Below are positions 3,248 to 50,229 of a DNA stretch of 64,000 bases, piece by piece. This DNA comes from an uncultured Elusimicrobia bacterium (GTDB lineage: Bacteria; Elusimicrobiota; Elusimicrobia; UBA1565; UBA9628). Under the pieces are notes generated by a model, which ran no database searches, was not told the DNA's origin, and saw only the letters and a list, made by a program, of their open reading frames with translations. The position numbers and the translations under genes are program-made. Where the stretch lies: the NCBI GenBank assembly GCA_964358485.1, contig CAYHPY010000004.1, positions 10,796 through 74,795 on the forward strand, given 5' to 3'. Positions within the stretch are counted from its first letter, which is position 1. Every line of letters begins with the position of its first letter.

Positions 3248-3256
3248 GGTCTTTTT

Positions 3257-4195
3257 TTAGGCCGCCGGAAACGGATCGCCCGGGGCCAGACGCAAGCCGT
3301 TCAAGAAATCCGCAGCGGGGACCGGCTTTTTTCCTTCAGGCTGAACCAGGACGACCCACAGGCGGCTGCCGTCCGAGCATTGTACCAAAATCCCCCTGGA
3401 ACGATCAACGGAGATGATGGTCCCGGGGGGGAAAGAGGAAACCCCCTCTCCCAGGGCGGTTTTGACGATCCCCAGTCGGCGGGGCGGGGCGCCGGAGAGC
3501 TCCAGCCAGGTTTTAGGCCAAAGGGACAGCCCCCGAACGCGGTCGTGGATGCGGGCCGCCGCCTGCTGGAAAGAGAGCCGGCCGTCTTCCTTTTGGATCA
3601 ATGGGGCCAGGCTCGGAGATCCGGATTGGGGGGTTCGCAGGACCCGTCCGGCCGCGATATCGGAAAGCGCCTCCCCCAAGCCTTCGGTCCCTATCCGGGT
3701 CAGCCGGGCCAGCAAGGCGCCGGCGTCCTCCTCGGGCCCGACCTGGGTCTCTCGGACCAATTGGACCGGCCCGGTGTCCATTCCCTCGTCCAGCCAGAAA
3801 ATCGTCACCCCCGTCCGGCTCTCCCCATGAACCAAGGCCCATTGGACCGGCGCGGCCCCGCGGTACTTGGGCAGGAGGGAGAAATGGACGTTGATCGCCC
3901 CGAGGCGGGCCGCCGAGAGAATGTCCGGCTTGAGGATCCGCCCGTAGGCCACCACGACGGCCAGGTCGCAGTTCAGCGCGGCCAATTCGGAGGCGGCGTC
4001 CGAGGGACGGGCCGGTTGGAGAACTTTCAAGCCCAGTTCCAGGGCCCGCTTCTTGACCGGGGTCGGAGCCACCGACAAACCGCGCCCGGCGGGCTTGTCG
4101 GGCTGGCTGACGACCGCGGCGACCTCGTGCCCGCGCACGGCCTCCTCCAAAAAAGGGACGGCCGTTTCCGGGGTCCCGAAGAACACTATCCTCAC
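3257..4195 (-). CDS. fmt: methionyl-tRNA formyltransferase
   Basis: A GTG start gives VRIVFFGTPETAVPFLEE...INVHFSLLPKYRGAAPVQWALVHGE, the Fmt N- and C-domain signatures. The upstream 133 codons of the track ORF are a GC-rich read-through and are not counted. There is a 4-nt overlap with def. Confidence 0.88.
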   Translation of the reverse strand: MRIVFFGTPETAVPFLEEAVRGHEVAAVVSQPDKPAGRGLSVAPTPVKKRALELGLKVLQPARPSDAASELAALNCDLAVVVAYGRILKPDILSAARLGAINVHFSLLPKYRGAAPVQWALVHGESRTGVTIFWLDEGMDTGPVQLVRETQVGPEEDAGALLARLTRIGTEGLGEALSDIAAGRVLRTPQSGSPSLAPLIQKEDGRLSFQQAAARIHDRVRGLSLWPKTWLELSGAPPRRLGIVKTALGEGVSSFPPGTIISVDRSRGILVQCSDGSRLWVVLVQPEGKKPVPAADFLNGLRLAPGDPFPAA

Positions 4196-4704
4196 GACCA
4201 GTTCTTCTTGAGGTCCTTGAGAATGCCCTGGACCCGCAGGCGCGCCTCGAAGGGAAGGTGGTCGATAAAGAGCTTGCCGTCCAAATGGTCGGTCTCGTGC
4301 TGAAAGGCCCGCGCCAACAGGCCCGTGCCCTCCATTTCGTAAGGCTCGCCGCGGGCGTCCAGCGCGCGGATGCGGGCCCGGACGGAGCGCGTGATTTTGG
4401 AGTACAGACCCGGCAGGGACAGACAGCCTTCCTCCTCGTGCACGCCGCCTTCCAAGGAGAGAATCTCGGGGTTGATGAGCACCAAAGGCTGGCGCTTGCC
4501 TTCCGGCCGCACGTCGATGACCGCCAGACGCAGGGAAAGTCCGATCTGGGGCGCGGCCAAACCCACCCCGTTGACGGAGTGCATCGTCGCCCACATGTCC
4601 CGAAGCAGGCGCGGAAGATCCTTTTTAAGGGCCCCGTAATCCACGGGCTCGGCGGCCTTGCGCAGAACCGCCTCACCGTGCTTGGTAATGCGAAGAACGC
4701 TCAT
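4192..4704 (-). CDS. def: peptide deformylase
   Basis: The three PDF motifs are present: GVGLAAPQIG, EGCLSLPG and QHETDHLDG. 170 aa. Confidence 0.95.
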   Translation of the reverse strand: MSVLRITKHGEAVLRKAAEPVDYGALKKDLPRLLRDMWATMHSVNGVGLAAPQIGLSLRLAVIDVRPEGKRQPLVLINPEILSLEGGVHEEEGCLSLPGLYSKITRSVRARIRALDARGEPYEMEGTGLLARAFQHETDHLDGKLFIDHLPFEARLRVQGILKDLKKNWS

Positions 4705-6701: not shown

Positions 6702-6709
6702 GAGGGCCG

Positions 6710-7288
6710 TCAGGCTTCTTTGCGGCGGATCAACTCCAGGGCCGCCGCGGGGGTCGCCGCTTGAGAAAGCTGCTCCACCAGATCCGGCTGGAAGAAGAAG
6801 GAGACTTCCCGGAGCATCCGCAGGTGGGGCTGGATGAACTCCTGTTTATCCGGGGAGAAAAACAAGAACATGACCCGGATCACCAATTGGGGATCCGCAA
6901 TCCCCTGGGGGACCAAGGCCATCCCGGCCACGATCCGGGAAATCGATTCCAGGCGCGCGTGGGGAAGGCTCAAACCGGTATCCAAGGTGGTGCTGACCGA
7001 TTTCTCCCGATCGACCACCTTGGCCAGGAGCGCGTCCTTGTTCGAGAATCCGTGTTTGGCGCAAAGGGCCGTGACCAGGCCCTCCAGAAGGGCTCCCTTG
7101 TCCTGGCCGGGCTGGGCCACCAGGATCACGTCCTCGCTCAAAAGCTCGGAAACCGGAGACGATTTGGCCTTGCCCTTGGACGGCTTGGCCGATCCGGCGG
7201 CGGGCGAGGAGGCCTTCTCCTGGGGCATCGGCTCCGGGGGAGGGGGCGGGGGAGGCGTGGATTTCTTCTGGAACCAACCGAGCGACAT
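6710..7288 (-). CDS. PTS EIIA-type (EIIA-Ntr/fructose-type) regulatory domain protein with Pro-rich N-terminal extension
   Basis: MSLGWFQKKSTPPPPPPPEP... is followed by a PTS_EIIA_2-like domain (ALLEGLVTALCAKHGF...LPHARL...VIRVMFLFFSPD). The start is inferred at MSLGW. The longer track ORF upstream is GC read-through. Confidence 0.7.
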   Translation of the reverse strand: MSLGWFQKKSTPPPPPPPEPMPQEKASSPAAGSAKPSKGKAKSSPVSELLSEDVILVAQPGQDKGALLEGLVTALCAKHGFSNKDALLAKVVDREKSVSTTLDTGLSLPHARLESISRIVAGMALVPQGIADPQLVIRVMFLFFSPDKQEFIQPHLRMLREVSFFFQPDLVEQLSQAATPAAALELIRRKEA

Positions 7289-7318
7289 AGGCGTCCGGGC
7301 ATTATAGTAGAATGGCCC

Positions 7319-8101
7319 ATGGTTCGCAAGCGGTCGGGGGCGGGAACCCTTCGGGGCCTGACCTTGATCCTGACCCGCCCCCGCAATCAGGCGGGGGAGA
7401 TGGCCGCCGCCCTGCGCGCCGCGGGGGCAAAGGTGGTCCTGGCCCCCTTGATCCGGATCGAGCCCCCGGATTCCTGGGCGCCCCTGGACCGGGCCCTGAC
7501 GAACCTCGGCGGCTTCGACGCCGTCGTGTTCGCCAGCGCCAACGCCGGAGAAGCCTTCTTTTCCCGGGCACAATCCCTTCGATTGGGCGCCCTGCCGCGG
7601 CCCCTCCGTCTTTTCGCCGTGGGGCCCGGAACGGCCCTGAGCCTGGCCGCGCACGGCTGGCCCGGAGCCGTCCAGCCCGCCAAAAATCAAGCGGAGGGCC
7701 TGGCACGGCGTCTGGGAGCGGTCCGAGGCTGGAAAATCCTCATTCCGCGGGCCGCCGAGGGGAGGGAGGCCCTCCCCCGGCTGCTGAGAAAAGCCGGGGC
7801 CAAGGTCACTTTGGCCCCGTGCTACCGGACCCGTCCGGATAAAGCCGGAGGGCGGGTCCTGGCCCGCGCAACCGGCCGCGGCGGGGTCCTCGTCGCCTTC
7901 GCCTCCCCGTCGGCCGTCAAGGCCGCCCGGAAGGCCTTGGGAGCCTCGGGGTTTCGCTCTTTGTTTCGAGGGGCAGGGGCGGCGGCCCTGGGTCCCGTGA
8001 CCGCCGCCGCCCTTAAAAAGTTCGGCGTCGTCGCCCGCGCGGTTTCCCTGAAACCGACGGCGGCGGGACTAGTGGACGCCCTCGCGGAGAACCTCGCGTG
8101 A
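7319..8101 (+). CDS. hemD: uroporphyrinogen-III synthase
   Basis: MVRKRSGAGTLRGLTLILTRP...GAKVVLAPLIRIEPP in the first half and ILIPRAAEGREALPRLLRKAGAKVTLAPCYRT in the second half are the HemD duplicated-half motifs. The start is inferred 30 nt from the divergent PTS gene. Confidence 0.75.
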   Translation: MVRKRSGAGTLRGLTLILTRPRNQAGEMAAALRAAGAKVVLAPLIRIEPPDSWAPLDRALTNLGGFDAVVFASANAGEAFFSRAQSLRLGALPRPLRLFAVGPGTALSLAAHGWPGAVQPAKNQAEGLARRLGAVRGWKILIPRAAEGREALPRLLRKAGAKVTLAPCYRTRPDKAGGRVLARATGRGGVLVAFASPSAVKAARKALGASGFRSLFRGAGAAALGPVTAAALKKFGVVARAVSLKPTAAGLVDALAENLA

Positions 8102-8889
8102 TCCCGGCCCGAGCCGAAAAGGTCTTGGGAACCGCCCTCTCCCGCGCGGGCCGGGTGCTGCGGCGCAAGTTCGGGAAAGTCGGGGTCGGCTACAAAGGAA
8201 GGGCCAACCTCGTCACCGCCGCCGACCTCGAAAGCCAGGAGGCCGTCCTGGCGACGATCCGCCGGGCGTTCCCCGGCCACGATTACCTGGCCGAGGAAAG
8301 TGCCGCCAAAAAGACCGGCTCCGACTATCTTTGGGTCATCGATCCGTTGGACGGAACGACCAATTTCGCCCACGGCTATCCGGTCTGCTGCGTGTCGATC
8401 GGCCTGCTGCGGCGGGGCGTCCCGGTGCTGGCCGGGATTTACGATCCGTTCCGCCGCGAGCGGTTCACCGCCCGCCGGGGACGGGGCGCCCATTTGAACG
8501 GGCGCCGCATCCGGGTTTCCGCGGCTGGCTCCGTGTCCGAATCACTGTTGGTGACCGGCTTTCCTTATGACCGGGCGGAGCGCTCCAGATTCTACGTCGA
8601 GTTCTACCGCCGCTTCATGGTCTCTTGCCACGACGTCCGACGGAGCGGCTCGGCGGCCCTGGACCTGGCGTGGATCGCGGCGGGCCGGGCCGAAGGATTC
8701 TGGGAGTTCAATTTAAGCCCCTGGGACGTGGCGGCCGGCGCTCTTCTGGTCGCTGAAGCCGGGGGCAAGGTGACGGATTTCGCGGGCCGCCCGTGGCGGT
8801 CCCTTGAGGATTTCGGGCGCCGGACTTTGGCCACCAACGGGCGCGTCCACGCCGAGATGCTGAAAACCTTGAACAAGGGCTTGCCGTGA
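8098..8889 (+). CDS. inositol monophosphatase family protein (SuhB-like)
   Basis: The IMPase motifs YLWVIDPLDGTTNF and WDVAAGALLVAEAGG are present. It overlaps hemD by 4 nt. Confidence 0.88.
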   Translation: MIPARAEKVLGTALSRAGRVLRRKFGKVGVGYKGRANLVTAADLESQEAVLATIRRAFPGHDYLAEESAAKKTGSDYLWVIDPLDGTTNFAHGYPVCCVSIGLLRRGVPVLAGIYDPFRRERFTARRGRGAHLNGRRIRVSAAGSVSESLLVTGFPYDRAERSRFYVEFYRRFMVSCHDVRRSGSAALDLAWIAAGRAEGFWEFNLSPWDVAAGALLVAEAGGKVTDFAGRPWRSLEDFGRRTLATNGRVHAEMLKTLNKGLP

Positions 8890-18178: not shown

Positions 18179-18862
18179 ATGAAGGCCCAAATTCTGGTCG
18201 TGGAAGACCAGGCCGCGACTTCCGAACTCATCTGCGACATCCTCAAGGAAGAGGGCTACGAGGTCCAGACCGTGGACACCGTCGCGGGCGCCAAGACCAG
18301 CCTCAAGCGGGCCGCCCCGGAGCTTTTGATTTTGGACCGGACCTTGCCGGACGGAGACGGCCTCGACCTCTGCAAAGAGCTTCGCGGCGAGGAAAAATTT
18401 CACTCCTTGCCGGTTTTGATCCTGACCGCCCGAAAGAGCGTGGAGGACAAGGTCTCCGGCCTCAAGGGCGGGGCCGACGATTACCTGGCCAAGCCCTTCA
18501 GCACGGAGGAACTCGTCGCCCGCGTCGGCGCGCTCCTGCGCCGCGCCGGGCGGGTGGAGGAACCCGCCACCCAGAAAGCCGGGGACCTGACCCTCAACCG
18601 CGAGTCCCGCAAGGCCTTCTCCGGGGGAAAGGAGATCGGCCTGAGCGCCAAGGAATTCGACCTGCTTTGGTTTCTCATGCTCCGGCGCAACCGGGTCCTC
18701 ACCCGGGACTTTCTCCTGCAGCATGTCTGGGGCTATGAGGAGGGCCTCAACCTCACCACCAAGGTCGTCGACGTCACCATGAGCCACCTGCGCGACAAGC
18801 TGGGCCCCTTGGCCTCGATGATCTCCGCCGTCCGCGGCTTCGGCTACCGCCTCGACGCCTAA
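18179..18862 (+). CDS. OmpR-family two-component response regulator (orphan; no adjacent histidine kinase)
   Basis: A receiver domain (VVEDQ...LILDRTLPDGDG...DDYLAKPF) is followed by a winged-helix trans_reg_C domain (LSAKEFDLLWFLMLRRNRVLTRDFLLQHVWG). Confidence 0.92.
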   Translation: MKAQILVVEDQAATSELICDILKEEGYEVQTVDTVAGAKTSLKRAAPELLILDRTLPDGDGLDLCKELRGEEKFHSLPVLILTARKSVEDKVSGLKGGADDYLAKPFSTEELVARVGALLRRAGRVEEPATQKAGDLTLNRESRKAFSGGKEIGLSAKEFDLLWFLMLRRNRVLTRDFLLQHVWGYEEGLNLTTKVVDVTMSHLRDKLGPLASMISAVRGFGYRLDA

Positions 18863-18866
18863 ATTA

Positions 18867-18915
18867 GGGACACCCCCCATTTTTACCATTGAATGGTAAA
18901 AATGGGGGGTGTCCC
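18867..18915. terminator. bidirectional intrinsic terminator: perfect palindrome with 24-bp stem
   Basis: GGGACACCCCCCATTTTTACCATT-g-AATGGTAAAAATGGGGGGTGTCCC lies between convergent genes (response regulator + and spermidine-synthase-like -). AAUUUA-type tails flank it on both strands. Confidence 0.7.
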
Positions 18916-18919
18916 CAAT

Positions 18920-20365
18920 TTAACGGCGGAGGTACTTGGCCACCAGCCACTCGACCGGGGCGCGGTCGTCGGTGAGCTCCTGGCCGGGGCGGCAGGCGAG
19001 CATGTCGGCCCCGATTCCGGTTTCGAAGCCCGTTCCCTCCAGAATATTCTTGGAGAGAACACCATCGGGGCGGTTTCCCGCGACGAGGATGACGTTCTGC
19101 ACTCCCCGGCCGAGCCCGTGGATGGGATGCAGGCGGACCTCAGGAAACTCCGCGGACAGGGACTGGGCGATCGCGCAGAGCAGTCCCTCCTTCTCCAGCA
19201 CGTCGCCGATCACGTTGAGCCCCAGGATTCCGTCGGACTTGAGCCCCCGGCGGACTTCCGCGAAAAACTCGCGGGTGGTGAGGTGGAAGGGAATCGACAT
19301 GACGCCCTGGTAGGCGTCCACGAAAACCCCGTCCAGGCTGGCGGCCTCGCCGCGCAGGGCCTGGCGTCCGTCGGCCACGCGGGTGCTCAGATTGGGGGCT
19401 TCCCCGGCCCGGAAATATTTCCGGGCCACGGCGTCGACGACCGGGTCGACCTCCGCCACGATGACGGAAGCCGCGGGCAGGGCCTCGGCCGCGCGCAGGG
19501 GCATGCTGAAGGCCCCGCCGCCGATGAAGAGCAGGCGCGCGGCCGCCTTGGGACCGAGAATGTTCGGAAACAACCGCCAGGCGCGGGTATACTCGAACAC
19601 CATTTCCTTGTCGGCCAGGCGCATCGCTCCCTCGTGCGTGCTGTCGAGCATCATCAAGCGGGTCAAGTCCGCCCCGGCGCCCTGCTCGAAAACCCGGACC
19701 AGCTGGTAGGAGGACTCCTTGGAGAAGACCGGTTCGGCGTCCATGTAGCTGACGGGCCGGGCGTTGGCGCGGGCGGCGCCGACCAGAGCCAGCGCGTAAA
19801 CGGCGACGGCCGCGGAGGCCTTGCCCCAGGAGGCCCCGCCCAGAAAGACGCGCAGGCCGAGGGCCAGGACGGCCAGGCCGACGCCGATGGCGGCGAAAAG
19901 CCCGCGCACCCCGTAGGCGGGGATCAGCCAAAAAACCGTGGCCATCGTCCCCAGGATGCTTCCCGCCGCGGCCAGGGCCGAACCGACGCCCGAGGCCACC
20001 GAGGGACTGCGCCCCTGGGCCGTCCAGATGCCGACGACCACCGGAGAAAGACCCGCCAACGCGGCGGCGGGCAGGCCGAACACCGCGAAACAACCGAAGA
20101 GGGGGGGATAAACCGACGGGGAGCCCGAAGGCGCCAGCAAAAGCAGGTCCGCCGCCCAGGGCACGCAGGACACCAGGAGCCCGGAGGCCAGCAACTCGGC
20201 GAAGGCCAAGGACGGCCGGTTTTTCGAGCGCTCGGAGAGCCAACCGCCCGCCAGATACCCGAGGAACAACCCCGCCACGATGATGGCGATGACCGAGGAC
20301 CAGGTGAAGACGGTGTTGCCGAAACGCGGGAACAGCAGACGCGTGGCCAGAAGCTCCACGCCCAT
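18920..20365 (-). CDS. spermidine/spermine synthase-family aminopropyltransferase fused to an N-terminal polytopic membrane domain
   Basis: The N-terminal ~190 aa are multi-TM. The C-terminal domain (LLFIGGGAFSMP...VIVAEVDPVV...GVFVDAYQG) is a class-I SAM/dcSAM-binding spermidine-synthase-like fold. Confidence 0.7.
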   Translation of the reverse strand: MGVELLATRLLFPRFGNTVFTWSSVIAIIVAGLFLGYLAGGWLSERSKNRPSLAFAELLASGLLVSCVPWAADLLLLAPSGSPSVYPPLFGCFAVFGLPAAALAGLSPVVVGIWTAQGRSPSVASGVGSALAAAGSILGTMATVFWLIPAYGVRGLFAAIGVGLAVLALGLRVFLGGASWGKASAAVAVYALALVGAARANARPVSYMDAEPVFSKESSYQLVRVFEQGAGADLTRLMMLDSTHEGAMRLADKEMVFEYTRAWRLFPNILGPKAAARLLFIGGGAFSMPLRAAEALPAASVIVAEVDPVVDAVARKYFRAGEAPNLSTRVADGRQALRGEAASLDGVFVDAYQGVMSIPFHLTTREFFAEVRRGLKSDGILGLNVIGDVLEKEGLLCAIAQSLSAEFPEVRLHPIHGLGRGVQNVILVAGNRPDGVLSKNILEGTGFETGIGADMLACRPGQELTDDRAPVEWLVAKYLRR

Positions 20366-27571: not shown

Positions 27572-29443
27572 ATGAAACCCGCCCCGGCCGAACCCGCCAA
27601 GAAAGCCTTCCAGCCCTTCATCCCGGCGGATCAATCCCCGACCGAAATGACCTGGCGCGGAATGATCATCGGCCTGCTGATCGCCGTCGTCTTCGGCGCC
27701 GGCAACGCCTACCTGGGCCTCAAGGTGGGGATGACGATATCCGCGTCCATCCCCGCGGCCGTGATCTCGATGGCGATCCTCCGGTCCATGAAGGGTTCTT
27801 CGATCCTGGAGAACAACATCGTCCAGACCGTGGGCTCCTCCGGCGAATCCCTGGCGGCCGGCGTCATCTTCACGATCCCGGCCCTCTTTTTCCTCGGAGA
27901 CCACCCGTCCTCCCTGAAAATATTCTGGATCTCGTCTTTGGGCGGCCTTCTGGGAGTCCTCTTCATGATTCCCCTGCGCCGGTATCTCATCGTCCAAGAG
28001 CACGAAACCCTTCCCTTTCCCGAGGGGAAGGCCTGCGCGGAGATTCTCATCGCCGGAGAGGAAGGCGGCTCCAAGGCCCGCCTCGTGGTCTGGGGCGGAG
28101 CGGTGGGGGCGGCCTTCAAGTTCCTCATGAGCGGCGCCCACGCCTGGGTCGACACCGCCAGCTGGACCCTGACCCGCCTGCAGGGCACGGTCGTCAGCCT
28201 GGAGGCCACGCCGTCCTTGCTGGGCGTGGGCTTCATCATCGGGCCCCGCATCGCGGCCATGATGCTCTCCGGCGCGGCCCTGGGCTGGTGGGTCCTCATC
28301 CCCCTGATCAAGATGTTCGGCGAGGGCCTGGCCGCCCCCATTTTCCCGGCCACGGCCCCGATCGGCGAGCTGGCGGCCTCAAAAATCTGGTCCAACTACA
28401 TCCGCTACATCGGCGCGGGCGCGGTGGCCACCGGGGGCCTGGTCGGATTGATCAAGTCCATCCCCATCGTCTCGCGCTCCTTTCGCGCGGGCTTGAAAGA
28501 GGCCTTCGGCGGGGTCGGCGCGAAAGTCGCCGCCTTGCGAACCGACGACGATCTCCCCATGAGCTGGGTGGTTTGGGGCTCGGTGGCCATCATCCTGGCC
28601 CTCTGGCTCACACCGGGGATGAACCTCAATTTGATGGCGATCGCCCTGGTGATCGTGATGGGCTTTTTCTTCGTGACGGTCGCCTCCCTGTCGGTCGGAT
28701 TGGTCGGCTCGTCCTCCAACCCGGTCTCCGGCATGACCATCACCACCCTGCTGGTCACCTGCCTGGTCTTCGTCGGCTTCGGCTGGACCAGCGAAAGCCA
28801 CATGCTCGGCGCCATGATGGTCGGGGCGGTCGTCTGCATCGCCATCTGCATGGCCGGCGACGCCTCCCAGGACCTCAAGACCGGCTACCTCGTCGGGGCG
28901 ACCCCCCGCTTGCAGCAGCTCTCCGAAGTTTTGGGCGTGCTCGTGCCCGCGACCGTGATGGGGGGAACGCTCTTCCTCCTTGATAAGGCCTACGGCCTGG
29001 GATCGGACAAGCTCTCGGCCCCGCAGGCGACCTTGATGAGCCTGGTGGTCAAGGGGGTGCTCCACGGGGATCTTCCCTGGCTGTTGGTGATCACCGGAGC
29101 GGTGATCGGGGCCTGCGTCGAACTGCTGGGCATCGGGTGCCTTCCTTTCGCCATCGGCCTGTACCTGCCGGTCTCCCTGAGCACCCCGATCATGGCCGGG
29201 GGCTTGGTCATGGCGGCGGTCCAGAAATTGGCCGGAGCTCGGGCCGAGGCCGCCAACCAGCGGGGGGTGCTCCTGGCCTCCGGCTTGGTCGCGGGCGACG
29301 CGGTGATGGGAGTGGTCATCGCCCTGTTGGTGGTGACCGGCCTGGTCAACATCGAGGCCGCGCCGCTGGCCGGATCCGGCGCCGCCCTCGCCGCTTTCCT
29401 GGCCGTCGCCGCCTGGCTCGGGGCCCTGAGCCTCAAGAAATGA
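27572..29443 (+). CDS. OPT-family oligopeptide transporter
   Basis: A 623-aa polytopic protein. The OPT motifs NIVQTVGSSGESLAAGV and a repeated 16-TM architecture are present. Confidence 0.88.
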   Translation: MKPAPAEPAKKAFQPFIPADQSPTEMTWRGMIIGLLIAVVFGAGNAYLGLKVGMTISASIPAAVISMAILRSMKGSSILENNIVQTVGSSGESLAAGVIFTIPALFFLGDHPSSLKIFWISSLGGLLGVLFMIPLRRYLIVQEHETLPFPEGKACAEILIAGEEGGSKARLVVWGGAVGAAFKFLMSGAHAWVDTASWTLTRLQGTVVSLEATPSLLGVGFIIGPRIAAMMLSGAALGWWVLIPLIKMFGEGLAAPIFPATAPIGELAASKIWSNYIRYIGAGAVATGGLVGLIKSIPIVSRSFRAGLKEAFGGVGAKVAALRTDDDLPMSWVVWGSVAIILALWLTPGMNLNLMAIALVIVMGFFFVTVASLSVGLVGSSSNPVSGMTITTLLVTCLVFVGFGWTSESHMLGAMMVGAVVCIAICMAGDASQDLKTGYLVGATPRLQQLSEVLGVLVPATVMGGTLFLLDKAYGLGSDKLSAPQATLMSLVVKGVLHGDLPWLLVITGAVIGACVELLGIGCLPFAIGLYLPVSLSTPIMAGGLVMAAVQKLAGARAEAANQRGVLLASGLVAGDAVMGVVIALLVVTGLVNIEAAPLAGSGAALAAFLAVAAWLGALSLKK

Positions 29444-31185
29444 GGCTGCCCGCGCTTTTCCGGGCCGCGGCCCCCCTGGCGCTGCTTTTATCTCCGGCGC
29501 ACGGCCAGCCCAAGAACCCGGACACCTTCACCTACGCCATCATCGGCGACGCCGACAGCCTGGACCCGGCGTGGCAATACGACGGCATCAGCCACGAAAT
29601 CCAATACCAAATTTACGAGACTTTGGTTTTCTACAAAGGGCCCTCGGTTTCGGAGTTCGAACCGATGCTCTCGCGGGTGGTCCCTTCCCGGGAAAACGGC
29701 CTGCTGTCCCAGGACGGATTGCGCTACGCCTTCCCGATCCGTAAAAACGTCAAGTTTCACGACGGCACCCCGCTCACTCCCGAGGACGTCCGCTACTCGA
29801 TTCTCCGATTCCTTCTGACCGACCGGGCCAGCGGCCCCTCCACCTTGCTCCTGGAACCGCTCCTTGGGGTTTTCTCCGTGACCGGGCCCGACGGCAAGCC
29901 GCTCCCCGGAATCTTCAAGGAAGCCGAAAAAGCCGTCACCATCGAGGCCGGGGCCCTGGTCCTCAAGCTCAAGAAACCGGCGGCGCCCCTTCTTTCGATC
30001 CTGGCGGGCTTTTGCCCCGTGGTCTCGAAATCCTTCGTCGTCGCCCACGGCGGCTGGGACGGATCGGAAGGCTCGTGGACCCGCCACCTCAACCCCTCCA
30101 AGCAGGACGCCGCCCTTTACGACCGCGCCAACGGCACCGGGCCCTTCAAGCTCGAGCGCTGGGACAAGGAGAACCGGGCCGTCATCCTTTCGCGCAACGA
30201 GGACTATTGGCGCAAGCCCGCGGCCCTCAAGCGGGTCATCTTCAAGACCGTGCCCGAGTCGGCCACCCGCAAGCTCATGCTCCAGGCCGGAGACGCCGAC
30301 GCCGCCTTTCTGGAGCGGCAATTTTTGCCGCAATTCGAGCGGCTGGAGGGCGTCACGGTCACCGACGACCTGCCGTTCCTCGAGATCCACAACGTCTTCG
30401 TTCCGAACTTTAAAATAACGATGGAAGGGAACCCCTACGTTGGGTCCGGGAAATTAGATGGGGACGGAATAACAAGCGACTTCTTTTCGGACATGGATGT
30501 CCGAAAAGGATTGGCCCACTCCTTCGATTATGACGCCTACATCCGCGACGGCTACCGGGGCAAGGGGCGCCGCGCCCGGGGTCCCGTCCCCTTCGGGGTT
30601 CTGGGCCACAACCCGCGCCAGACCCTCCTGAATTTCGATCCCGCCAAGGCCGCCGAGCACTTCAAGAAGGCCTTCGGCGGCCGCCTTTGGGAGACGGGGT
30701 TCCGCTTTACGGTCCTCTTCATGGAGGGCCGCGCCGACCGCCAGCTCGCCTGCCAGATTCTCAAAGCCCAGGTGGAGGCCCTCAACCCCAAGTTTCATAT
30801 CGAGGTGCGCGGGGTCCAGTGGTCCACCTATCTCAGCCATTTCAGCGCCGGACGCATTCCCATCGCCAACGCCCGGTGGGCCATGGACTTTCCGGACCCC
30901 CACAACGCCGTCCAGCCCTTCCTCCACAGCGCGGGGCATTACGCCAAGCGCCAGGGCTACGCCAATCCCCGCGCGGACGCACTGGTGGAGCGGGCCTGGG
31001 GGGAAACCGATCCCGAAAAGCGAAAAGCCCTTTACGCGGAGCTCCAATCGATCGCTCGCACCGATTTGCCCCAAATTTATACAATCGACACCTACCATCT
31101 TCAGGTGCGCCGAAGCTGGGTGAAGGGGTGGTATTATAATCCGATCGTGGTGTATGGATACCTTTACCCGGTCAGGAAGGATTAG
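29440..31185 (+). CDS. ABC transporter substrate-binding protein, family 5 (peptide/nickel; paralog 1)
   Basis: The start MRLPALFRAAAPLALLLS is inferred (ATGA overlap with OPT). SBP_bac_5 motifs are present (DPAWQYDGISHEIQYQIYETL, DVRKGLAHSFDYD). Confidence 0.88.
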   Translation: MRLPALFRAAAPLALLLSPAHGQPKNPDTFTYAIIGDADSLDPAWQYDGISHEIQYQIYETLVFYKGPSVSEFEPMLSRVVPSRENGLLSQDGLRYAFPIRKNVKFHDGTPLTPEDVRYSILRFLLTDRASGPSTLLLEPLLGVFSVTGPDGKPLPGIFKEAEKAVTIEAGALVLKLKKPAAPLLSILAGFCPVVSKSFVVAHGGWDGSEGSWTRHLNPSKQDAALYDRANGTGPFKLERWDKENRAVILSRNEDYWRKPAALKRVIFKTVPESATRKLMLQAGDADAAFLERQFLPQFERLEGVTVTDDLPFLEIHNVFVPNFKITMEGNPYVGSGKLDGDGITSDFFSDMDVRKGLAHSFDYDAYIRDGYRGKGRRARGPVPFGVLGHNPRQTLLNFDPAKAAEHFKKAFGGRLWETGFRFTVLFMEGRADRQLACQILKAQVEALNPKFHIEVRGVQWSTYLSHFSAGRIPIANARWAMDFPDPHNAVQPFLHSAGHYAKRQGYANPRADALVERAWGETDPEKRKALYAELQSIARTDLPQIYTIDTYHLQVRRSWVKGWYYNPIVVYGYLYPVRKD

Positions 31186-31189
31186 CTTT

Positions 31190-32953
31190 ATGAAACGAAC
31201 AATTTTGGCAACGGCACTGATGGCCGTCTTTATGGCCGCGCCCACGGGCGCGACCATAAAGAATAAAGACACCTTCATCCACCTCACCATCGGCGACCCG
31301 GAGAGCCTGGATCCGGTCTGGTCCTACGACACCGCCAGCCAGAACATCATCGGAAACATCTACGAATACCTTCTTGCCTTCCAGGGCTCCGGCGTGACCC
31401 CCAAGGACCTCATCGGGCGGCTCGCCGAAAAGGTCCCTTCGACCGCCAACGGCCTGCTGTCCAAGGACGGACTCACCTACCGTTTTCCGATCCGCAAAGG
31501 AGTGAAGTTCCAGGACGGCTCCATCCTCACCCCCGAGGACGTGCGGTACTCCTTCCTTCGTTTCCTGCTGGTCGACCGCGACGGGGGGCCCTCGTCGCTT
31601 CTGTTGGAGCCCCTCCTCGGCGTGACCGGAACCCGGGGCCCGGACGGGAAAATGCTTCCCGGAATCTACGACCGCGCTGCCAAGGCGGTCAGCTTGGAAG
31701 GGACTACTCTCGTCATCCGTCTGGACAAGCCCTTCGCCCCGTTCTTGAGCATTCTGGCCAGCTTCGGAGCCATCGTCTCCAAACCCTGGTGCGTCGCCAA
31801 GGGGGAATGGGACGGGACCCCCGAGGGCCTGGCGACCCACAACAATCCCAAGCGGGAGTCGTCCCACCTCCTGGACCACGCCAACGGAACCGGGCCCTTT
31901 TCCCTGGAGCGTTTCGACAAGGCCACCAAGGAAATCTTCTTGGCCCGGCACGACGGCTACTGGCGGGGACCCGCCAAGCTCAAGCGCGTCATCGTCAAGG
32001 TCATCGACGAGTTCGCCACCCGCAAGCTCAAGATCCAAGCCGGGGACGCCGACACCATCTACGGCCCGCAAATGTATTTTCCCCAGCTTCAAGGCTTGGA
32101 CGGCGTCGAAGTGATCGACGGGCTCCAGAATCTGGAAAGAAGCTCGATCGTCTTTTTCACGTTCAAGTCGAATCCTTCGGGAAATCCAAATCTGGGATCC
32201 GGGAAATTAGACGGGAACGGAATACCGCCCGACTTCTTTTCGGACATAAATGTCCGAAAAGGATTCGCCTACTCCATCGACTATGAAGGTTATGTCCGGG
32301 ATATCCTGCGGGGAAAGGGGCGCCAAGCCGTCAGCTTCATTCCCCAGGGCCTGGTGGGCTACAAGGCCGACCTGCCCAAGCATACCTTCGACCCGAAGAA
32401 AGCCGAAGAGCACATGAAAAAGGCGTGGGGGGGAAAGGCCTGGGAAAACGGCTTCAAGCTCACCATGGTTTTCAACGCCGGCTCGGCCCCGGCCCAGACC
32501 GTTTGCCAGATGATCAAGAAGAACGTCGAGGCTTTGAACCCCAAGTTCAAGATCGACGTGCGCAGCCTGCAGTGGTCCTCATTCCTCGAGCAGAACCAGG
32601 CGGGCAAGACCCCGCTCTACCTGGGAGCCTGGCAGGCGGATTACCCGGACGCGCATAATTTCGCCTTTCCCTTGCTGCACTCCAAGGGCTATTTCCCCGG
32701 CAAGCAGCGCTACGCCAACCCCGAGGTGGACCGGCTCATCGAGGAGGCCGCCCGGACCCAGGACTCGGCCAAGCGCGAGAAGCTTTACGTGAAGCTCCAG
32801 AAGATCGTCTTCGAAGACGTCCCCCACGTCCAAATTTCCGAAGGAGTCCGCTACCGCACCCAACGCACCTGGGTCAAAGGCTTCGTCTTCAACCCGATCT
32901 TCCCGGACTCGCCCTACGGAAGCTATTTCTACGATCTGAGGAAGGAGGAATGA
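31190..32953 (+). CDS. ABC transporter substrate-binding protein, family 5 (paralog 2)
   Basis: MKRTILATALMAVFMAAPTGA is the signal peptide. It is a paralog of the flanking SBPs. Confidence 0.88.
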   Translation: MKRTILATALMAVFMAAPTGATIKNKDTFIHLTIGDPESLDPVWSYDTASQNIIGNIYEYLLAFQGSGVTPKDLIGRLAEKVPSTANGLLSKDGLTYRFPIRKGVKFQDGSILTPEDVRYSFLRFLLVDRDGGPSSLLLEPLLGVTGTRGPDGKMLPGIYDRAAKAVSLEGTTLVIRLDKPFAPFLSILASFGAIVSKPWCVAKGEWDGTPEGLATHNNPKRESSHLLDHANGTGPFSLERFDKATKEIFLARHDGYWRGPAKLKRVIVKVIDEFATRKLKIQAGDADTIYGPQMYFPQLQGLDGVEVIDGLQNLERSSIVFFTFKSNPSGNPNLGSGKLDGNGIPPDFFSDINVRKGFAYSIDYEGYVRDILRGKGRQAVSFIPQGLVGYKADLPKHTFDPKKAEEHMKKAWGGKAWENGFKLTMVFNAGSAPAQTVCQMIKKNVEALNPKFKIDVRSLQWSSFLEQNQAGKTPLYLGAWQADYPDAHNFAFPLLHSKGYFPGKQRYANPEVDRLIEEAARTQDSAKREKLYVKLQKIVFEDVPHVQISEGVRYRTQRTWVKGFVFNPIFPDSPYGSYFYDLRKEE

Positions 32954-45249: not shown

Positions 45250-46698
45250 ATGATCCCCGTCTCCAGCCTGAGCCTGGCCGCAACCGACGAACGCGACGCG
45301 CCGCTTTGCCTGTTCTCCCACCCGGGGGGCGTCCTGGCGGGCGCCGGGGCCCTGCCGCCCGCCCTGCGCAAGGACCTGTCCGCGCAAGCCGCGGCGGAAG
45401 GCTTCACCGGAGAGCTCGGGGAATGCGTCGGCCTGCGGGCCGACCGGGGCGGGCGTTCCCGCCGCTTTCTTATCGCCGGAGCCGGCCGCCGCGAGGACGC
45501 CAGCCCGGAAACTTGGCGCCGCGCCGCGGGGGTCCTCTACCAGCACGCCCGCGGGCGCTTCGAGGAGATTTCCGTCCTCCCCGGGCCCGACGCGCGCGCG
45601 ACCGCCGAGGGCCTGATGCTGGGCTCCTACCGCTTCTCCGAATACAAGAAGGCCGACCCCTCGCGCCTGGCGCGGGCCGGGCTGGTGTTTGCCGGAGCCG
45701 CCGCCCGCCGGGGGATCGAAAAGGCCTGCGCGGAAGCCGCGATCATCGCCGACGCCGTGGCCATGGTCCGGGACCTCGTGGACCGGGCTCCCTCCGACAA
45801 GACTCCGGAAAGCATCGCCGCCCTGGCCCAAAACCTGGCGGGGGCGCAGACCAAGGTGACGGTCATCTCCAAGGCCGAGGCGGAAAAATTGGGGATGGGG
45901 GCCTTCCTCGGCGTGGCCCGCGGGGGCGGGGCCGATCCGGTCTTCCTGCACCTGACCTATAAGCCCAAGGGAGCGCGCCGTAAAATCGGCTTGGTCGGCA
46001 AGGGAATCACCTTCGACTCGGGCGGCCTGAGCCTCAAGCCCGCCGCCTCGATGGAAACCATGAAAATGGACATGGCGGGTGCCGCGGCCGTGCTCGGCGT
46101 TTTCAAGGCCCTCCCGCAATTCAAGATCCGGGCCGAAGTCCACGGGTTCTGCCCCTTCACCTACAACCTTCCGGGCCCCGACGCGGTGCGGCCCGGGGAC
46201 GTGCTCAAGGCGATGAACGGAAAAACCATCGAGGTTCTCAACACCGACGCCGAGGGCCGATTGGTCCTGGCCGACGCCCTGGTCTACGCCTGCCGCCAGA
46301 AATTCGACGCGATCGTCGATCTGGCCACTTTGACCGGGGCCGCCGTGGTCGCCTTGGGCAGCAAGGTGACCGGCGCGATGACCAATAACCGGGCCCTCTT
46401 GGCCCAACTCTTCTCGGCCTCCAAGCGGGCCGGGGAAACCCTCTGGGAGCTCCCCCTGCCCCGGGAATACCGGGAAATGATCAAGAGCTCCTTCGCCGAC
46501 CTCAAGAACATCGGCAAGCCGGGGGAGGCGGGGACGATCATCGGGGGCCTCTTCCTGCAGGAATTCGTGGACGACACCCCATGGGTCCACCTCGACATCG
46601 CCGGCACCGCCTGGACCGACTCGGACACCCCGACCTGCCCGAAGGGGGGAACCGGAGCCCTGGTGCGGACCTTGGTCGAATACCTGAAGGCCCTATGA
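45250..46698 (+). CDS. pepA: leucyl aminopeptidase (M17)
   Basis: The M17 active-site signatures [11 protein letters not shown] and [14 protein letters not shown] are present. Confidence 0.92.
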
Positions 46699-47273
46699 AG
46701 AAACCGGGTCGGACGGCCCCGGACGACGAGCTCGCGGGCAATGTCCGCGCCCTGATCCTCGGCATCGGCGAAAATCCCGAGAGGGAGGGCCTGCTCAAGA
46801 CCCCGCACCGCGTGGCCAAGTCCCTCAAGGAGCTGACCAGCGGCTACGCCGCGGACGTGGACGCCATGATCAACGGCGCCCTGTTCAAGGAAACCTACAA
46901 CGAGATGGTGCTCGTGCGGGACATCACCTTCTATTCCCTCTGCGAGCACCACCTGCTTCCCTTTTTCGGGAAGGCGCACGTGGCGTACATCCCGGAGGGC
47001 AGGATCGTCGGCCTTTCAAAAATCCCGAAACTGGTCGAGATCTTTTCCCGCCGCCTGCAGGTCCAGGAGCGCCTCACCAGCCAGATCGCCGAAACCCTGG
47101 AGCGCAAACTCGCGCCCCGGGGGGTGGGGGTGGTCCTGGAGGCCAGGCACCTCTGCATGGAGATGCGCGGGGCCGAAAGCCTTCACTCGCCGACGGTGAC
47201 CAGCGCCATGATCGGCTGTTTCCAAAAGGACCCGCGGACGCGGAAGGAATTCCTCAGCCTCATCAACCGGTAG
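46695..47273 (+). CDS. folE: GTP cyclohydrolase I
   Basis: An ATGA overlap with pepA. The FolE motifs [22 protein letters not shown] and QVQERLT are present. Confidence 0.93.
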
Positions 47274-47292
47274 CCGAATTTGGCGTGGACGA

Positions 47293-47338
47293 CATTATCA
47301 CCTCCGCGGCGGAGGTGATTTTGTCGTTGAGAACAAAA
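47293..47338. repeat. palindromic repeat copy 1 (hairpin + T-tract; probable folE terminator)
   Basis: ATCACCTCCGCGGCGGAGGTGATTTTGTCGTTGAG lies 20 nt after the folE stop. It is a near-identical copy of 47693..47742. Confidence 0.6.
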
Positions 47339-47692
47339 CCAGGGGAGAGCCGGGGTCGTTGGGGGGAAAAGAAAGCCCCCCACGGCCCATCGTCCCCCCG
47401 CGGGGGGGCTCCGGTGGCGCTCGACCTAACGGCAGGTCGAGCGCTGAAAAAAACACCCGCGAATTTTAACCGAGATTTTCAGGTTTGGCATTACGCCGTG
47501 AGTCATTCACAGCTTCTCCTGCGGAGCGTGAAGGGGAATAAACACAAGACTCGCATCGACGTGCTGTTCAAAGGCGTCGACCTGGTCCATATTCCCACGA
47601 ACTTTTCCGGGCAAGTTTCTCTCGTTCGCTTTGGCTTGGAATGCTCCACCCGCGCATTCGTTCGGGATTTGAACTGAGTAGGCAATGTCTCC

Positions 47693-47742
47693 AACGACAA
47701 AATCACCTCCGCCGCGGAGGTGATTTTGTCGTTGAGGACAAT
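47693..47742. repeat. palindromic repeat copy 2 (perfect ~43-nt palindrome; bidirectional terminator-like)
   Basis: CAACGACAAAATCACCTCCGCCGCGGAGGTGATTTTGTCGTTG lies 14 nt downstream of the CDGSH gene stop on the minus strand. Confidence 0.6.
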
Positions 47743-47755
47743 ACGCGTCGGCCCG

Positions 47756-47998
47756 TCAAAGCGTCCGGTGGGTGCCGTCGCAGTACGGCTTCTTGCCCGA
47801 CCGCCGGCAGCCGCACCAGGCCACCTTCTGGGCTTCCTTGAATTCCACGGGGACCGGGACGATCCCGGTGTTCATGCGCGCGTGGGAACCGTCGCAGTAG
47901 GGCTGCTTCTGGGAATGGCCGCAGGCGCACCAGGCCTTTTTCCCGGCGGGCTCCTCCCGGACGTAGGGGGCCTTCTGATCCATCTTCGGTTCGCTCAT
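47756..47998 (-). CDS. CDGSH iron-sulfur domain protein (two CDGSH motifs)
   Basis: CACGHSQKQPYCDGSH and CGCRRSGKKPYCDGTH. 80 aa. Confidence 0.85.
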   Translation of the reverse strand: MSEPKMDQKAPYVREEPAGKKAWCACGHSQKQPYCDGSHARMNTGIVPVPVEFKEAQKVAWCGCRRSGKKPYCDGTHRTL

Positions 47999-48064
47999 CT
48001 TTTCTCCCGGGGACGCGGCTCCGAACTTGAGCCTCCGCCGGGGTTATTATACAATAGACCCGAC

Positions 48065-48135
48065 GCGGGCGTAGTTCAATGGTAGAATGGGAGCTTCCCA
48101 AGCTCTAGACGTGGGTTCGATTCCCATCGCCCGCT
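48065..48135 (+). tRNA. tRNA-Gly (anticodon CCC)
   Basis: GCGGGCGTAGTTCAATGGTAGAAT...CTTCCCAAG...GGTTCGATTCC...CGCCCGCT folds as a cloverleaf with a 7-bp acceptor stem. It is near-identical to the E. coli tRNA-Gly(CCC) recalled from memory. CCA is not encoded. Confidence 0.9.
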
Positions 48136-48147
48136 CTCGATTTCCCG

Positions 48148-50229
48148 GTGTTCTTTTCCGTCCTCTCGGCTTTTTTCCTCGGCGCGGGCCCCGCCCGCGC
48201 GGCCACTCCCCCAGACGCCCAGGCGTTGATCGCCGAGGGCCATTCCCTTTACCAGCGTGGACGGTCCCGGGACGCCCTCCTGGCCTATCGGCGGGCGGTT
48301 AAATTAGATTCCGAAGCGGTTGCGGGCTGGATCAACGGGGCCGTCCTCTTGGAAGACCTCGGCCAGCCCAAGGAAGCCCGGAAGTGGTGGAGCCGCGCCG
48401 CCTCCCTGACCTCGGACCCCGAGGTGGGCGTTCAGGTCGGCTGGGCGGGCCTGGCAGCGGACGATCTCGCTGGAGCCCGCAAGGCCCTGGAGTCTGCCTT
48501 AGCCCGCGCGCCGGAAGACCCCTTGGCCCTGCTCGGCCTGGCCCGGGTGCGCCTCGGCGGGCCCAAGCCCGACCCGGAAGCGGCCCTGCCCCTGCTCGAT
48601 CGGGCGGCCAGGAACGCCCCCTTGTTGACTTTGATCCCCTTCTGGCAGGGGATCGCCAACGGCAAGTTGGGCCGCAACGGCCCGGAAATCGAGGGCTACC
48701 GGAAGAGCGTCGCGGGGGACTCCTATTTTTTCGAGGGACGGGAGGCCCTGGGGCAGGCTCATCTGCGGGAAAGCCGGTTCAATGAGGCCTGGCGGCAATT
48801 CAGCCGGATTCTGGACGCCGACCCCCGGAACAAGCGATTTCGGGCCTTGATCGAGAAACTCCGTCCGCGTTTGACCAAGAATCCCTCGGAAATCCGCCCC
48901 TCGTCGACGCGGGAAGCCCCGGATTGGGGGCAGGCCGACGAGGGCAAGGGAAGCCTGCCGATTCTCCGCGTGGGAATCGGGACCACCCCCATGGGGCGTC
49001 CCCTGCCCCGGCAATTGGTGACCTTCTCGCCGCGGACTTCGTTCTGGCTGGCCGACGCCCGGACCGGCCGGCGGCTGATTCCCGGCAAGGCCGGGGAAGC
49101 CTGGCAGGCGACGGTCCGGATCGTGAAAAAACGGGCGATGCTGGACATCACGGACCCCTCGGGGAAAAGCCGCCTCCGGCGCCGGGAGTCCGTCCTCATC
49201 CGCCCCGACTCCCCGAACGAGGGCTTCACCGTCCTCAAGGACATCCCCTATGCCCGGGGCTCCCAATGGACCGGAGTCGCCGACAAAGTGGTGCGGGGGG
49301 ACCTGGAACTTTCCCTTTGGGCGGGCGGGCGCTCCCTGCGGCTGGTCAATTGGATCGATCTGGAAAATTACACCCACGGAGTCGTCTCCGCGGAGATGCC
49401 CGTCCAATCCCCCTTGGAGGCCTTGAAAGCCCAGGGCGTCATGGCCCGGGGACACGCGCTCTACATCAAAACCATGACCCGCCGCCACCGCAAGGACGGC
49501 TACGATCTCTGCGACGAACAGCACTGCCAGGTTTACGGCGGAGTCCGCTACGAAAGCGCCAGGTCCCGGGCGGCGGTGGCGGCCACCCGGGGAAAAATCC
49601 TGACATATAAGGGAAGGCCCGCCCACGTCATCTATTCCTCCAACTGCGGGGGCCGCACGCAGAGCGGACGGGACGTGGGCTGGGGGGACGTTCCCTATTG
49701 GGTCGGGATCGTCGATTCTCCCGAGGCGTCCGACGTCCCGCGCGCGCCCTGGGACTTCCGGCGCTGGCTCCAAGCCTCGCCCCAGGCCTATTGCAAGCCT
49801 TCCGCCTATGTCCACTCCTCCCATTTCCGCTGGACGCGGGTCATCCCCGTCAAGGATCTTGAGGACAAGCTCCGCCGCAAGAAAAACCTAGGGCGGCTTT
49901 TGTCGGTCGCGGTCGAGCGCCGTTCGCCGGCGGGCAACGCGCTTGCCCTCAAGCTCACCGGGAGCAAGGGGACCCTGCGCGTCGATTCCGAGCTCAGCAT
50001 CCGCGGCATGCTGGGCACCGGTTCCTTAAGAAGCACCCTGTTTTTCATCCGGCCGGAGGCCGACGCCGCCGGCCGTCTCGAACGCCTCGTGCTCCATGGG
50101 GGGGGCTGGGGCCACGGAGTCGGCCTTTGCCAGTCGGGCGCCATGGGCCGGGCCGAGGCCGGAGAGCCCTTCGAGGCCATCGTCAAGGCTTATTTTCCCG
50201 GGACCGAACTGGGCTCCCTGAAATATTGA
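48148..50229 (+). CDS. TPR-repeat / SpoIID-LytB domain fusion protein
   Basis: A signal peptide is followed by N-terminal TPR-like repeats (AYRRAVKLDSEAVAGWINGA...). The C-terminal SpoIID/LytB domain has SNCGGRT and GHGVGLCQSGA. Confidence 0.75.
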   Translation: MFFSVLSAFFLGAGPARAATPPDAQALIAEGHSLYQRGRSRDALLAYRRAVKLDSEAVAGWINGAVLLEDLGQPKEARKWWSRAASLTSDPEVGVQVGWAGLAADDLAGARKALESALARAPEDPLALLGLARVRLGGPKPDPEAALPLLDRAARNAPLLTLIPFWQGIANGKLGRNGPEIEGYRKSVAGDSYFFEGREALGQAHLRESRFNEAWRQFSRILDADPRNKRFRALIEKLRPRLTKNPSEIRPSSTREAPDWGQADEGKGSLPILRVGIGTTPMGRPLPRQLVTFSPRTSFWLADARTGRRLIPGKAGEAWQATVRIVKKRAMLDITDPSGKSRLRRRESVLIRPDSPNEGFTVLKDIPYARGSQWTGVADKVVRGDLELSLWAGGRSLRLVNWIDLENYTHGVVSAEMPVQSPLEALKAQGVMARGHALYIKTMTRRHRKDGYDLCDEQHCQVYGGVRYESARSRAAVAATRGKILTYKGRPAHVIYSSNCGGRTQSGRDVGWGDVPYWVGIVDSPEASDVPRAPWDFRRWLQASPQAYCKPSAYVHSSHFRWTRVIPVKDLEDKLRRKKNLGRLLSVAVERRSPAGNALALKLTGSKGTLRVDSELSIRGMLGTGSLRSTLFFIRPEADAAGRLERLVLHGGGWGHGVGLCQSGAMGRAEAGEPFEAIVKAYFPGTELGSLKY

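Follow-up and report, generated by a model that had tools for sequence, protein, structure and literature searches.

Results

The locus and its empty sites

The subject of this analysis is the intergenic region between two convergent genes, folE and a gene for a CDGSH iron-sulfur protein, in a 64-kb stretch of Elusimicrobiota DNA; this whole stretch is called the window below, and its positions 46500-48600 were read directly. A total of 482 nucleotides (nt) separate the two genes, and they hold, from left to right, a short spacer, a palindrome of some 50 nt, a GC-rich stretch of hairpins, a low-GC stretch and a second copy of the palindrome (Table 1). An earlier note on this DNA had seen in the palindromes and in what lies between them a hairpin-rich non-coding segment, perhaps a small structured RNA, a mobile or repetitive element, or a scar of integration at the nearby tRNA-Gly gene. 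We find that about 469 nt of the region, both palindromes included, are an insertion specific to this lineage, and that its low-GC part carries the broken remnant of a gene from a large, unannotated family of small proteins, putatively immunity proteins of polymorphic toxin systems.

Orthologous loci were fetched by way of folE homologues, and two related genomes have the junction without the insertion. At the nearer one (L065), where folE and CDGSH are 90% and 92.5% identical in amino acid (aa) sequence to those of the window, the gene order is the same, with pepA and folE followed by the convergent CDGSH gene and tRNA-Gly, and the two stop codons stand 10 nt apart (GAAAGGCGGT). At the other (L104; folE 79% identical) folE and CDGSH are 3 nt apart, and neither L065 nor L104 has any trace of a palindrome at the folE-CDGSH junction. 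In more distant relatives the convergent junction is likewise tight, and the genes around it are different ones. Because both outgroups are palindrome-free, the tight junction is ancestral and the ~469 nt with both palindromes are a gain in the lineage of the window, and the suggestion of inserted or mobile DNA in the earlier note is to that extent borne out. The 13 nt directly after the folE stop codon, CCGAATTTGGCG, probably represent the ancestral spacer, and the left boundary of the insertion, as read by eye, falls 2-3 nt from the foot of the first palindrome, where the left arm of that palindrome is truncated.

Five contigs carry an identical CDGSH protein, and the same element is present in all of them, with one single-nucleotide polymorphism in one contig. 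Three of the five assemblies bear the label 'Hain_', which we take to stand for Hainich groundwater, and the other two are without it. Since the element recurs in five independent metagenome assemblies, the insertion is real and fixed in the species and is not an assembly artefact. Two contigs end inside or just past the element, and on these (L060, positions 3198-3686; L061, positions 406-786) the gene caller made an open reading frame (ORF) of 126-162 aa across the palindrome, the hairpins and the gene remnant; the resulting spurious proteins are present in public protein collections.

Table 1. Features of the folE-CDGSH region (positions in the window; a point in the strand column means that no strand is assigned)
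Feature	Position	Strand	Evidence and remarks
folE (GTP cyclohydrolase I), left flanking gene	46695..47273	+	Pfam PF01227, E 1.4e-74; stop TAG at 47271-47273
Probable ancestral spacer CCGAATTTGGCG	47274..47286	.	13 nt; resembles the GAAAGGCGGT of L065; aligned by eye, boundary +/- a few bases
Lineage-specific insertion, ~469 nt	47287..47755	.	Absent from L065 and L104
Palindrome copy 1	47289..47339	.	Imperfect hairpin at 47289-47327 with TT/TT internal loop
GC-rich hairpin stretch	47340..47464	.	69% GC; minimum free energy -72.9 kcal/mol, z -5.0 vs shuffles; three stem-loops, then an A7 run
Sigma-70-like promoter match ATGCCA-17-TAAAAT	47463..47491	-	9/12 positions; points left into the hairpin stretch; consensus match only
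Pseudogene fragment, codons 3-51 of a ~115-aa family	47465..47611	+	tblastn with P0001: 87.8% identity over 49 aa, E 4e-28
Out-of-homology tail, same frame	47612..47677	+	21 unrelated codons to TGA at 47675-47677
Palindrome copy 2	47694..47744	.	Perfect 43-nt palindrome (21+1+21) at 47692-47734
CDGSH iron-sulfur protein, right flanking gene, 80 aa, two CDGSH motifs	47756..47998	-	Pfam PF09360, E 5.9e-21
tRNA-Gly(CCC)	48065..48136	+	ARAGORN; Rfam 69.7 bits; ancestral context, outside the element

Two palindromes at convergent gene ends

The palindrome core, ATCACCTCCGCSGCGGAGGTGAT, occurs at exactly two places in the window with up to three mismatches allowed (47297-47319 and 47702-47724), and there was no match to it in 100 dinucleotide-preserving shuffles. 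The core lies within a direct repeat of 51 nt at 90% identity (47289-47339 vs 47694-47744; 5 of the 51 positions differ), the two units being spaced 405 nt apart, so that the earlier note was right to speak of two palindromic repeats. Being palindromic, the copies double as an inverted repeat of 50 nt at 88%, of which 33 nt are perfect, 362 nt apart. Their central bases differ, G in one copy as against C in the other, and these are mutual reverse complements.

The hairpin of copy 1 measures 19+1+19 nt (89%), and its left arm ends ~8 nt before that of copy 2 would. The perfect 43-nt palindrome previously described for copy 2 is present as such, and at 93% it stretches further, to 27+1+27 nt (47686-47740); the A/T tracts that had been taken for its flanks belong to the palindrome arms themselves. 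Copy 1 stands 16 nt past the folE stop codon on the + strand and is followed by TTTTGTCGTT, and copy 2 stands ~15 nt past the CDGSH stop codon on the - strand. Each palindrome has a GC-rich inner stem and then UUUUGUCGUU on the relevant strand. On the - strand copy 2 has the same inner stem as copy 1, but here the UUUUGUCGUU run is able to pair with the A-tract. A scan for terminator-like structures picked up copy 1 at 47297-47319 on the + strand, and the computed folding energies are -33.8 kcal/mol for copy 1 (+ strand) and -42.6 and -43.8 kcal/mol for copy 2 (+ and - strand, respectively). Both palindromes, each ~15 nt past a stop codon with a T-run on the relevant strand, are terminator-like as judged from the sequence and most likely act as intrinsic terminators, copy 1 for folE (+) and copy 2 for CDGSH (-); given the terminator scan and the folding energies, the earlier phrase 'bidirectional-terminator-like' was a reasonable description.

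A blastn search of the 64-kb window gave no further copy of any part of the intergenic region, and the status of a multicopy element like the repetitive extragenic palindromic (REP) sequences, as had been proposed, is unsupported there. The palindrome pattern had 56 matches in GTDB representative genomes, all of them generic GC hairpins and none with the extended arm, and scans with single arms (a 19-mer in JGI metagenomes, a 16-mer in IMG/VR) yielded 31 single-arm chance matches and no palindrome. These scans also missed the known locus, and hence have nothing to say about the source genome outside the window. Peptides translated from the palindrome had no match in a protein search, which likewise missed the ORFs that run over the element on L060 and L061.

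Long palindromes are found at other convergent gene ends in the same genome. Two other convergent genes of the window are separated by nothing but a 63-nt, 97% palindrome at 18860-18922 (TAAATTAGGGACACCCCCCATTTTTACCATT-A-AATGGTAAAAATGGGGGGTGTCCCCAATTTA), whose outer arms contain the TAA stop codons of both genes. This palindrome, unrelated in sequence to the folE-CDGSH one, is probably a bidirectional terminator. A seeming second pair of bracketing palindromes, at 30476-30515 and 32230-32267, was ruled out: these are ~40-nt palindromes inside two tandem paralogous coding genes (29137-32953; 682 and 599 aa), which share 72-77% nucleotide identity over blocks of 150-183 nt at a spacing of 1753 nt.

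A gene fragment and a hairpin stretch between the palindromes

The interval between the palindromes consists of two unlike sub-segments, and the earlier picture of it as one low-GC, hairpin-rich segment fits each of them in one respect only. The low GC content is a property of 47465-47691 (~51%, the window being at 66%), where the folding is no more structured than that of shuffled sequence (z +0.29); the preceding stretch, 47340-47464, is by its base composition not low in GC at all (Table 1), and this is where the three stem-loops that had been named do exist (47361-47381, 47394-47408 and 47417-47444). The whole element folds with a z of -9.7, and the - strand of 47290-47456 with a z of -6.2.

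The low-GC part opens with the pseudogene fragment. Relative to the gene of its family member P0001 the fragment is 81.6% identical in nucleotide sequence, with 27 differences over 147 nt that are distributed 4/0/23 over the three codon positions, and the codon changes comprise 19 synonymous and 6 non-synonymous ones. Since the differences are split in this manner, with 19 synonymous changes, the fragment evolved as coding DNA through nearly all of its divergence. Its GC content is 51%, and its GC content at third codon positions (GC3) is 65% vs 89% in folE, by which it is recognisable as foreign. The N-terminal motif of the family is kept, with the invariant W, V, H, QLLLRS, LF, V and P columns all in place.

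What makes a full-length member (~110-125 aa, the C-terminal motif and a start codon) is, however, not there. The position of the family ATG reads GCG AAT, with no ATG, GTG or TTG at the aligned start and no alternative nearby, and in the alignment homology to the family stops after PTNFSG, such that the conserved C-terminal half is absent and the frame runs on into an unrelated tail. Judged by these features, 47465-47611 is a truncated, start-less, non-functional gene remnant and not a working family member. To state that the segment has no convincing ORF, as was done earlier, was therefore misleading, because this part is clearly derived from a protein gene; the low-GC two-thirds of the interval, for which a non-coding RNA (ncRNA) or a repetitive element had been considered, proved to be the degraded remnant of a protein gene that had been named as the contrary outcome.

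Searches of Pfam, NCBIfam and PHROGs with the ORFs over the element gave no significant match, and no remnant of an Ntox27-like toxin (see below) was found in the insertion or in the window. The flanks of the 147-nt fragment have no similarity to the loci of its family. The hairpin stretch, for its part, resembles nothing else in the window and nothing at these same loci. An Rfam scan of 47000-48300 with E values up to 10, which the earlier note had proposed as a check, passed the tRNA only; the rest was microRNA-type and other noise, at 12-30 bits against cut-offs of at least 47 bits.

The protein family behind the fragment

The translation of 47468-47674 was used as the query against protein collections, and gave 11 close matches and 536 clusters at 50% identity; among the matches listed, nearly all are confined to the first ~50-67 residues of the query. 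Proteins of this family are ~110-125 aa long and share an invariant N-terminal motif, FQVWxYxVSHSQLLLRS..TRIDVLFKGV..PT, and a C-terminal motif, G.VVA....ED..EY..PS. The members are designated P0001-P0157, and some of them are multi-copy fusions, such as P0014, with 1485 aa and seven matched stretches. The family has no significant sequence match in Pfam, NCBIfam or PDB, the Pfam run being made on nine full-length members.

The gene neighbourhood of two members offers a clue to the function. The P0004 gene lies downstream of the gene for a 2140-aa toxin of the SpvB/TcdB/RHS/YD-shell type, and the ORFs that immediately precede P0001 and P0004 share 64% identity; each of these ORFs has a sub-threshold match to Ntox27, in the same part of it (E 0.013 and 0.044). 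The fold predicted for the family is all-beta and closest to that of the immunity protein PIM7, the fold match being a moderate one. Taking gene context and predicted fold together, we regard the family as putative polymorphic-toxin immunity proteins. No immunity partner is listed for Ntox27 by Zhang et al. 2012 (PMC3482391), and the family, whose members recur downstream of Ntox27-like C-terminal toxin domains, is a candidate for this missing partner. Around family members in other genomes we found no palindromes like those of the element.

Repeats of other kinds were seen at some family loci. At L105, positions 3600-8600 (ena:ERZ25039550 contig_814, a 2.36-Mb contig that bears the family member P0010), a motif of 27-37 nt, CGGGTGTCATTGGCGGACACTGAGTGA, has at least nine occurrences between small unknown genes, one of them for a DUF4265 protein, at spacings of 270-1017 nt; a ~4.9-kb block there is bounded by inverted repeats of ~100 nt (3610-3704 and 8504-8600). 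The arrangement suggests an array of small genes punctuated by repeats, and is dissimilar to attC. At L107 (2350-2374 and 2791-2815), and also at L109, the sequence TAGCCTGCGsCsATG spans the start codon and is near-identical at a family member and at a YjbR gene; the genes concerned are small, co-directional neighbours with intergenic gaps of 95 and 105 nt, and the sequence is possibly a cassette-junction or translational-coupling motif.

Flanking genes

The genes upstream of the element are pepA and folE. A search of protein collections shows a protein identical to the folE product (P0158, 192 aa), and the named folE homologues nearest to it come from metagenome-assembled genomes of Elusimicrobia/Elusimicrobiota. 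On the other side, the CDGSH gene has an internal direct repeat of 66 nt (47768-47947; 73% identity, spacing 114 nt) that mirrors its two CDGSH domains. The tRNA-Gly(CCC) lies 320 nt from the segment, against 300 nt in the earlier note.

Discussion

We propose, with a probability that we would put at roughly 0.55, that the block at ~47287-47755 is a decayed, repeat-bounded cassette, a piece of horizontally acquired DNA that this lineage gained in one insertion. Both ~50-nt palindromes would have arrived within one insert between folE and CDGSH, and the same insert would have brought the GC-rich hairpin stretch and the truncated 5' fragment of the putative immunity gene. The palindromes most likely now act as intrinsic terminators, insulating from each other a pair of genes whose 3' ends nearly touch in relatives. 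One insertion that already carried both copies is the simplest history because the empty sites are without both repeats. Seen more broadly, the feature is an ordinary product of genome flux, the debris of an orphan immunity gene and palindromic terminators at convergent genes both being of known kinds.

Several points weigh against this proposal. There are only two outgroups, and the nearer one is ~10% diverged in protein, which leaves room for a two-step history with the palindrome first. The left arm of copy 1 breaks off where the insertion begins, and 5 of 51 positions are not the same in the two copies, to which the capture of a random fragment is equally well fitted. No convincing target-site duplication is seen, the flanks GGCGTGG vs GCGTCGG being indistinguishable from chance in GC-rich sequence, and palindromes resembling those of the element do not flank members of the protein family elsewhere. 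The T-run of copy 2 is partly within its own stem. Neither the palindrome nor the hairpin stretch turned up a second time in the window, GTDB representatives, JGI metagenomes or IMG/VR, and the proposal offers no origin for the hairpin stretch. As to a recombinase or transposase, there is none within +/-6 kb according to the contig annotation, and none among the ten integrase-sized ORFs of the window, which in Pfam belong to housekeeping families or have no match.

The element might instead be a low-copy, non-autonomous transposable element, for instance a miniature inverted-repeat transposable element (MITE), a relative of the mobile insertion cassettes or one of the IS200/IS605 type, with a transposase encoded elsewhere that would recognise the hairpin-forming terminal repeats, and with the gene fragment as a passenger. 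We hold this to be possible, if on the whole unlikely. It would fit well with the terminal inverted repeats (50 nt at 88%, 33 nt perfect), with a length of ~460 nt, an intergenic position between convergent genes and a GC content below that of the host, with the strong fold of the element as a whole (z -9.7) and with the two relatives whose clean empty sites are without both repeats. One locus per 64 kb would agree, moreover, with ~20-50 copies per genome. Nevertheless, no other copy came to light in the window, GTDB representatives, JGI metagenomes or IMG/VR, a clear target-site duplication is missing and the left repeat is truncated. The interior is an immunity-like gene fragment and not the remnant of a transposase, no transposase or recombinase is among the ORFs tested or within +/-6 kb, and Rfam gave no IS605-associated or HEARO match.

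Alternatively, integration could have taken place in two steps and by a Campbell-type event, in which a resident palindromic, bidirectional terminator recombined with a matching palindrome on a small circular cassette, much as integron cassettes do at attC or as rAID-1-like orphan-immunity cassettes would, and left a 405-nt unit with hybrid copies at its ends. Integron attC sites are ~57-141 nt long; their core sites are RYYYAAC (R'') and GTTRRRY (R'), and the folded single strand has extrahelical bases and a central spacer that is unpaired. The ends of the palindrome, CTCCAAC (47689-47695) and GTTGAGG (47731-47737), agree with these cores at 6 of 7 positions each, and the geometry is that of a cassette: the direct repeats are spaced 405 nt apart, the small ORF between them lacks a promoter and points toward the downstream palindrome, and the GC content is skewed; the difference between the copies in the central base (G vs C) would suit such an event as well. 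Repeat-bounded arrays of orphan immunity genes with a XerD-like recombinase are, in addition, known in Bacteroidales (bioRxiv 10.1101/471110). Yet both outgroups are without a palindrome at the site, so that an extra, unobserved step is required, and copy 2 has neither extrahelical bases nor an unpaired spacer and is, at 49-55 nt, below the known attC sizes. With no tyrosine recombinase nearby and a single cassette only, we judge this history to be rather unlikely.

A bolder idea is that the element is one copy of a class of hairpin-ended mini-cassettes, as yet undescribed, by which orphan immunity genes are moved about; the long, nearly perfect palindromes would be recombination sites and at the same time ready-made bidirectional terminators. 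Such mini-cassettes could be integron- or rAID-like, or could depend on recognition by a single-strand transposase, and they could settle harmlessly between convergent genes. We consider this improbable on present evidence. Should further palindrome pairs be found with other cargo, this would amount to a new type of small mobile cassette.

It is more doubtful that a small structured ncRNA is made from the GC-rich hairpin stretch, taken alone or together with the palindromes, such as a ~165-nt - strand transcript that would run from the promoter-like site at 47491-47463 to copy 1. The folding (47340-47464 has a z of -5.0 on the + strand, and 47290-47456 one of -6.2 on the - strand) and the 9/12 promoter match on the - strand just upstream would both agree with it. 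However, there is no Rfam match up to an E of 10, no homologue was found and there is consequently no covariation support, the stretch is missing from the closest relatives, its G6/C6 hairpins are low-complexity, and the promoter match is weak, while the adjoining low-GC part is protein-derived and unstructured.

An inverton, in which the palindromes would be the inverted repeats of a site-specific invertase that flips a 362-nt segment with its promoter-like site, is very improbable. Perfect 33-nt inverted repeats 362 nt apart, central bases that are reverse complements and an internal promoter-like site are what one would look for, but the orientation is the same in 6 of 6 independent sequences, both flanking genes point inward so that either orientation would give only antisense transcription, and there is no invertase gene nearby. 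Finally, we give next to no credence to the scar of an integrative element that targeted tRNA-Gly, for which the position 320 nt from tRNA-Gly(CCC) and the direct repeats at the flanks would speak: the repeats have no sequence in common with the tRNA, the CDGSH gene that stands between is intact and conserved, no integrase lies within +/-6 kb or among the ten integrase-sized ORFs, and the synteny of L065, which has the same CDGSH-tRNA order without the insertion and an empty site without any attB-like copy of the repeat, contradicts it.

A decayed cassette remains our preferred account of this insertion, and its significance is mostly one of annotation: a hairpin-rich, low-GC 'non-coding' island near a tRNA gene is explained as a dead, horizontally acquired gene fragment together with terminator-like palindromes. 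Gene callers convert this element into a spurious ORF on truncated contigs. The fragment also points to a large, unannotated family of small proteins that is a candidate immunity partner of Ntox27-like toxins. Furthermore, the comparison of the filled with the empty site illustrates how convergent genes that stand tail to tail can gain terminators by way of inserted DNA.

Comparison with known systems

Two bodies of work on immunity genes are among the closest parallels. In polymorphic toxin systems, immunity genes occur as orphans and also as fragments (Zhang et al. 2012, PMC3482391), and the rAID-1 arrays of Bacteroidales consist of repeat-bounded orphan immunity genes, with a XerD-like recombinase at the 5' end and two or more co-directional low-GC genes (bioRxiv 10.1101/471110). 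Like orphan immunity genes and rAID-1, the element has a small immunity-like gene as its cargo, without a cognate toxin, of foreign base composition and with repeats around it. Unlike rAID-1, it holds one truncated and start-less fragment in place of an array of intact genes, and no XerD-like recombinase was found nearby; its host is a member of the Elusimicrobiota and not of the Bacteroidales, its repeats are long palindromes, of which copy 2 is perfect, and its family is in neither Pfam nor NCBIfam.

The element is comparable to an integron cassette, or to a cluster of attC sites lacking integron-integrases (CALIN), in being a ~405-nt unit of a small promoterless ORF and then a palindromic site, with two similar sites less than 4 kb apart. 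It differs from attC in that copy 2 is a perfect palindrome, 49-55 nt overall, and copy 1 has only a symmetric TT/TT internal loop, and from integrons in that no intI is present within +/-6 kb or among the ten integrase-sized ORFs of the window and the empty site is palindrome-free. With MITEs, mobile insertion cassettes and REP sequences or bacterial interspersed mosaic elements (BIMEs) it shares a small size, an intergenic position at convergent 3' ends, hairpin formation, terminal inverted repeats, and presence or absence among close relatives. Unlike MITEs and REP/BIME elements it is without any other known copy or evident target-site duplication, and its interior comes from an unrelated protein gene. 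The direct repeat puts a subterminal hairpin at each end, both oriented alike, a trait in common with elements of the IS200/IS605 type.

The resemblance to bidirectional terminators lies in the GC-rich stem, which has an A-tract on one side and a T-tract on the other and stands 15-16 nt beyond each stop codon. The usual bidirectional terminator, however, is one shared hairpin, while here two copies stand 354 nt apart, in an arrangement that was recently inserted between the two genes.

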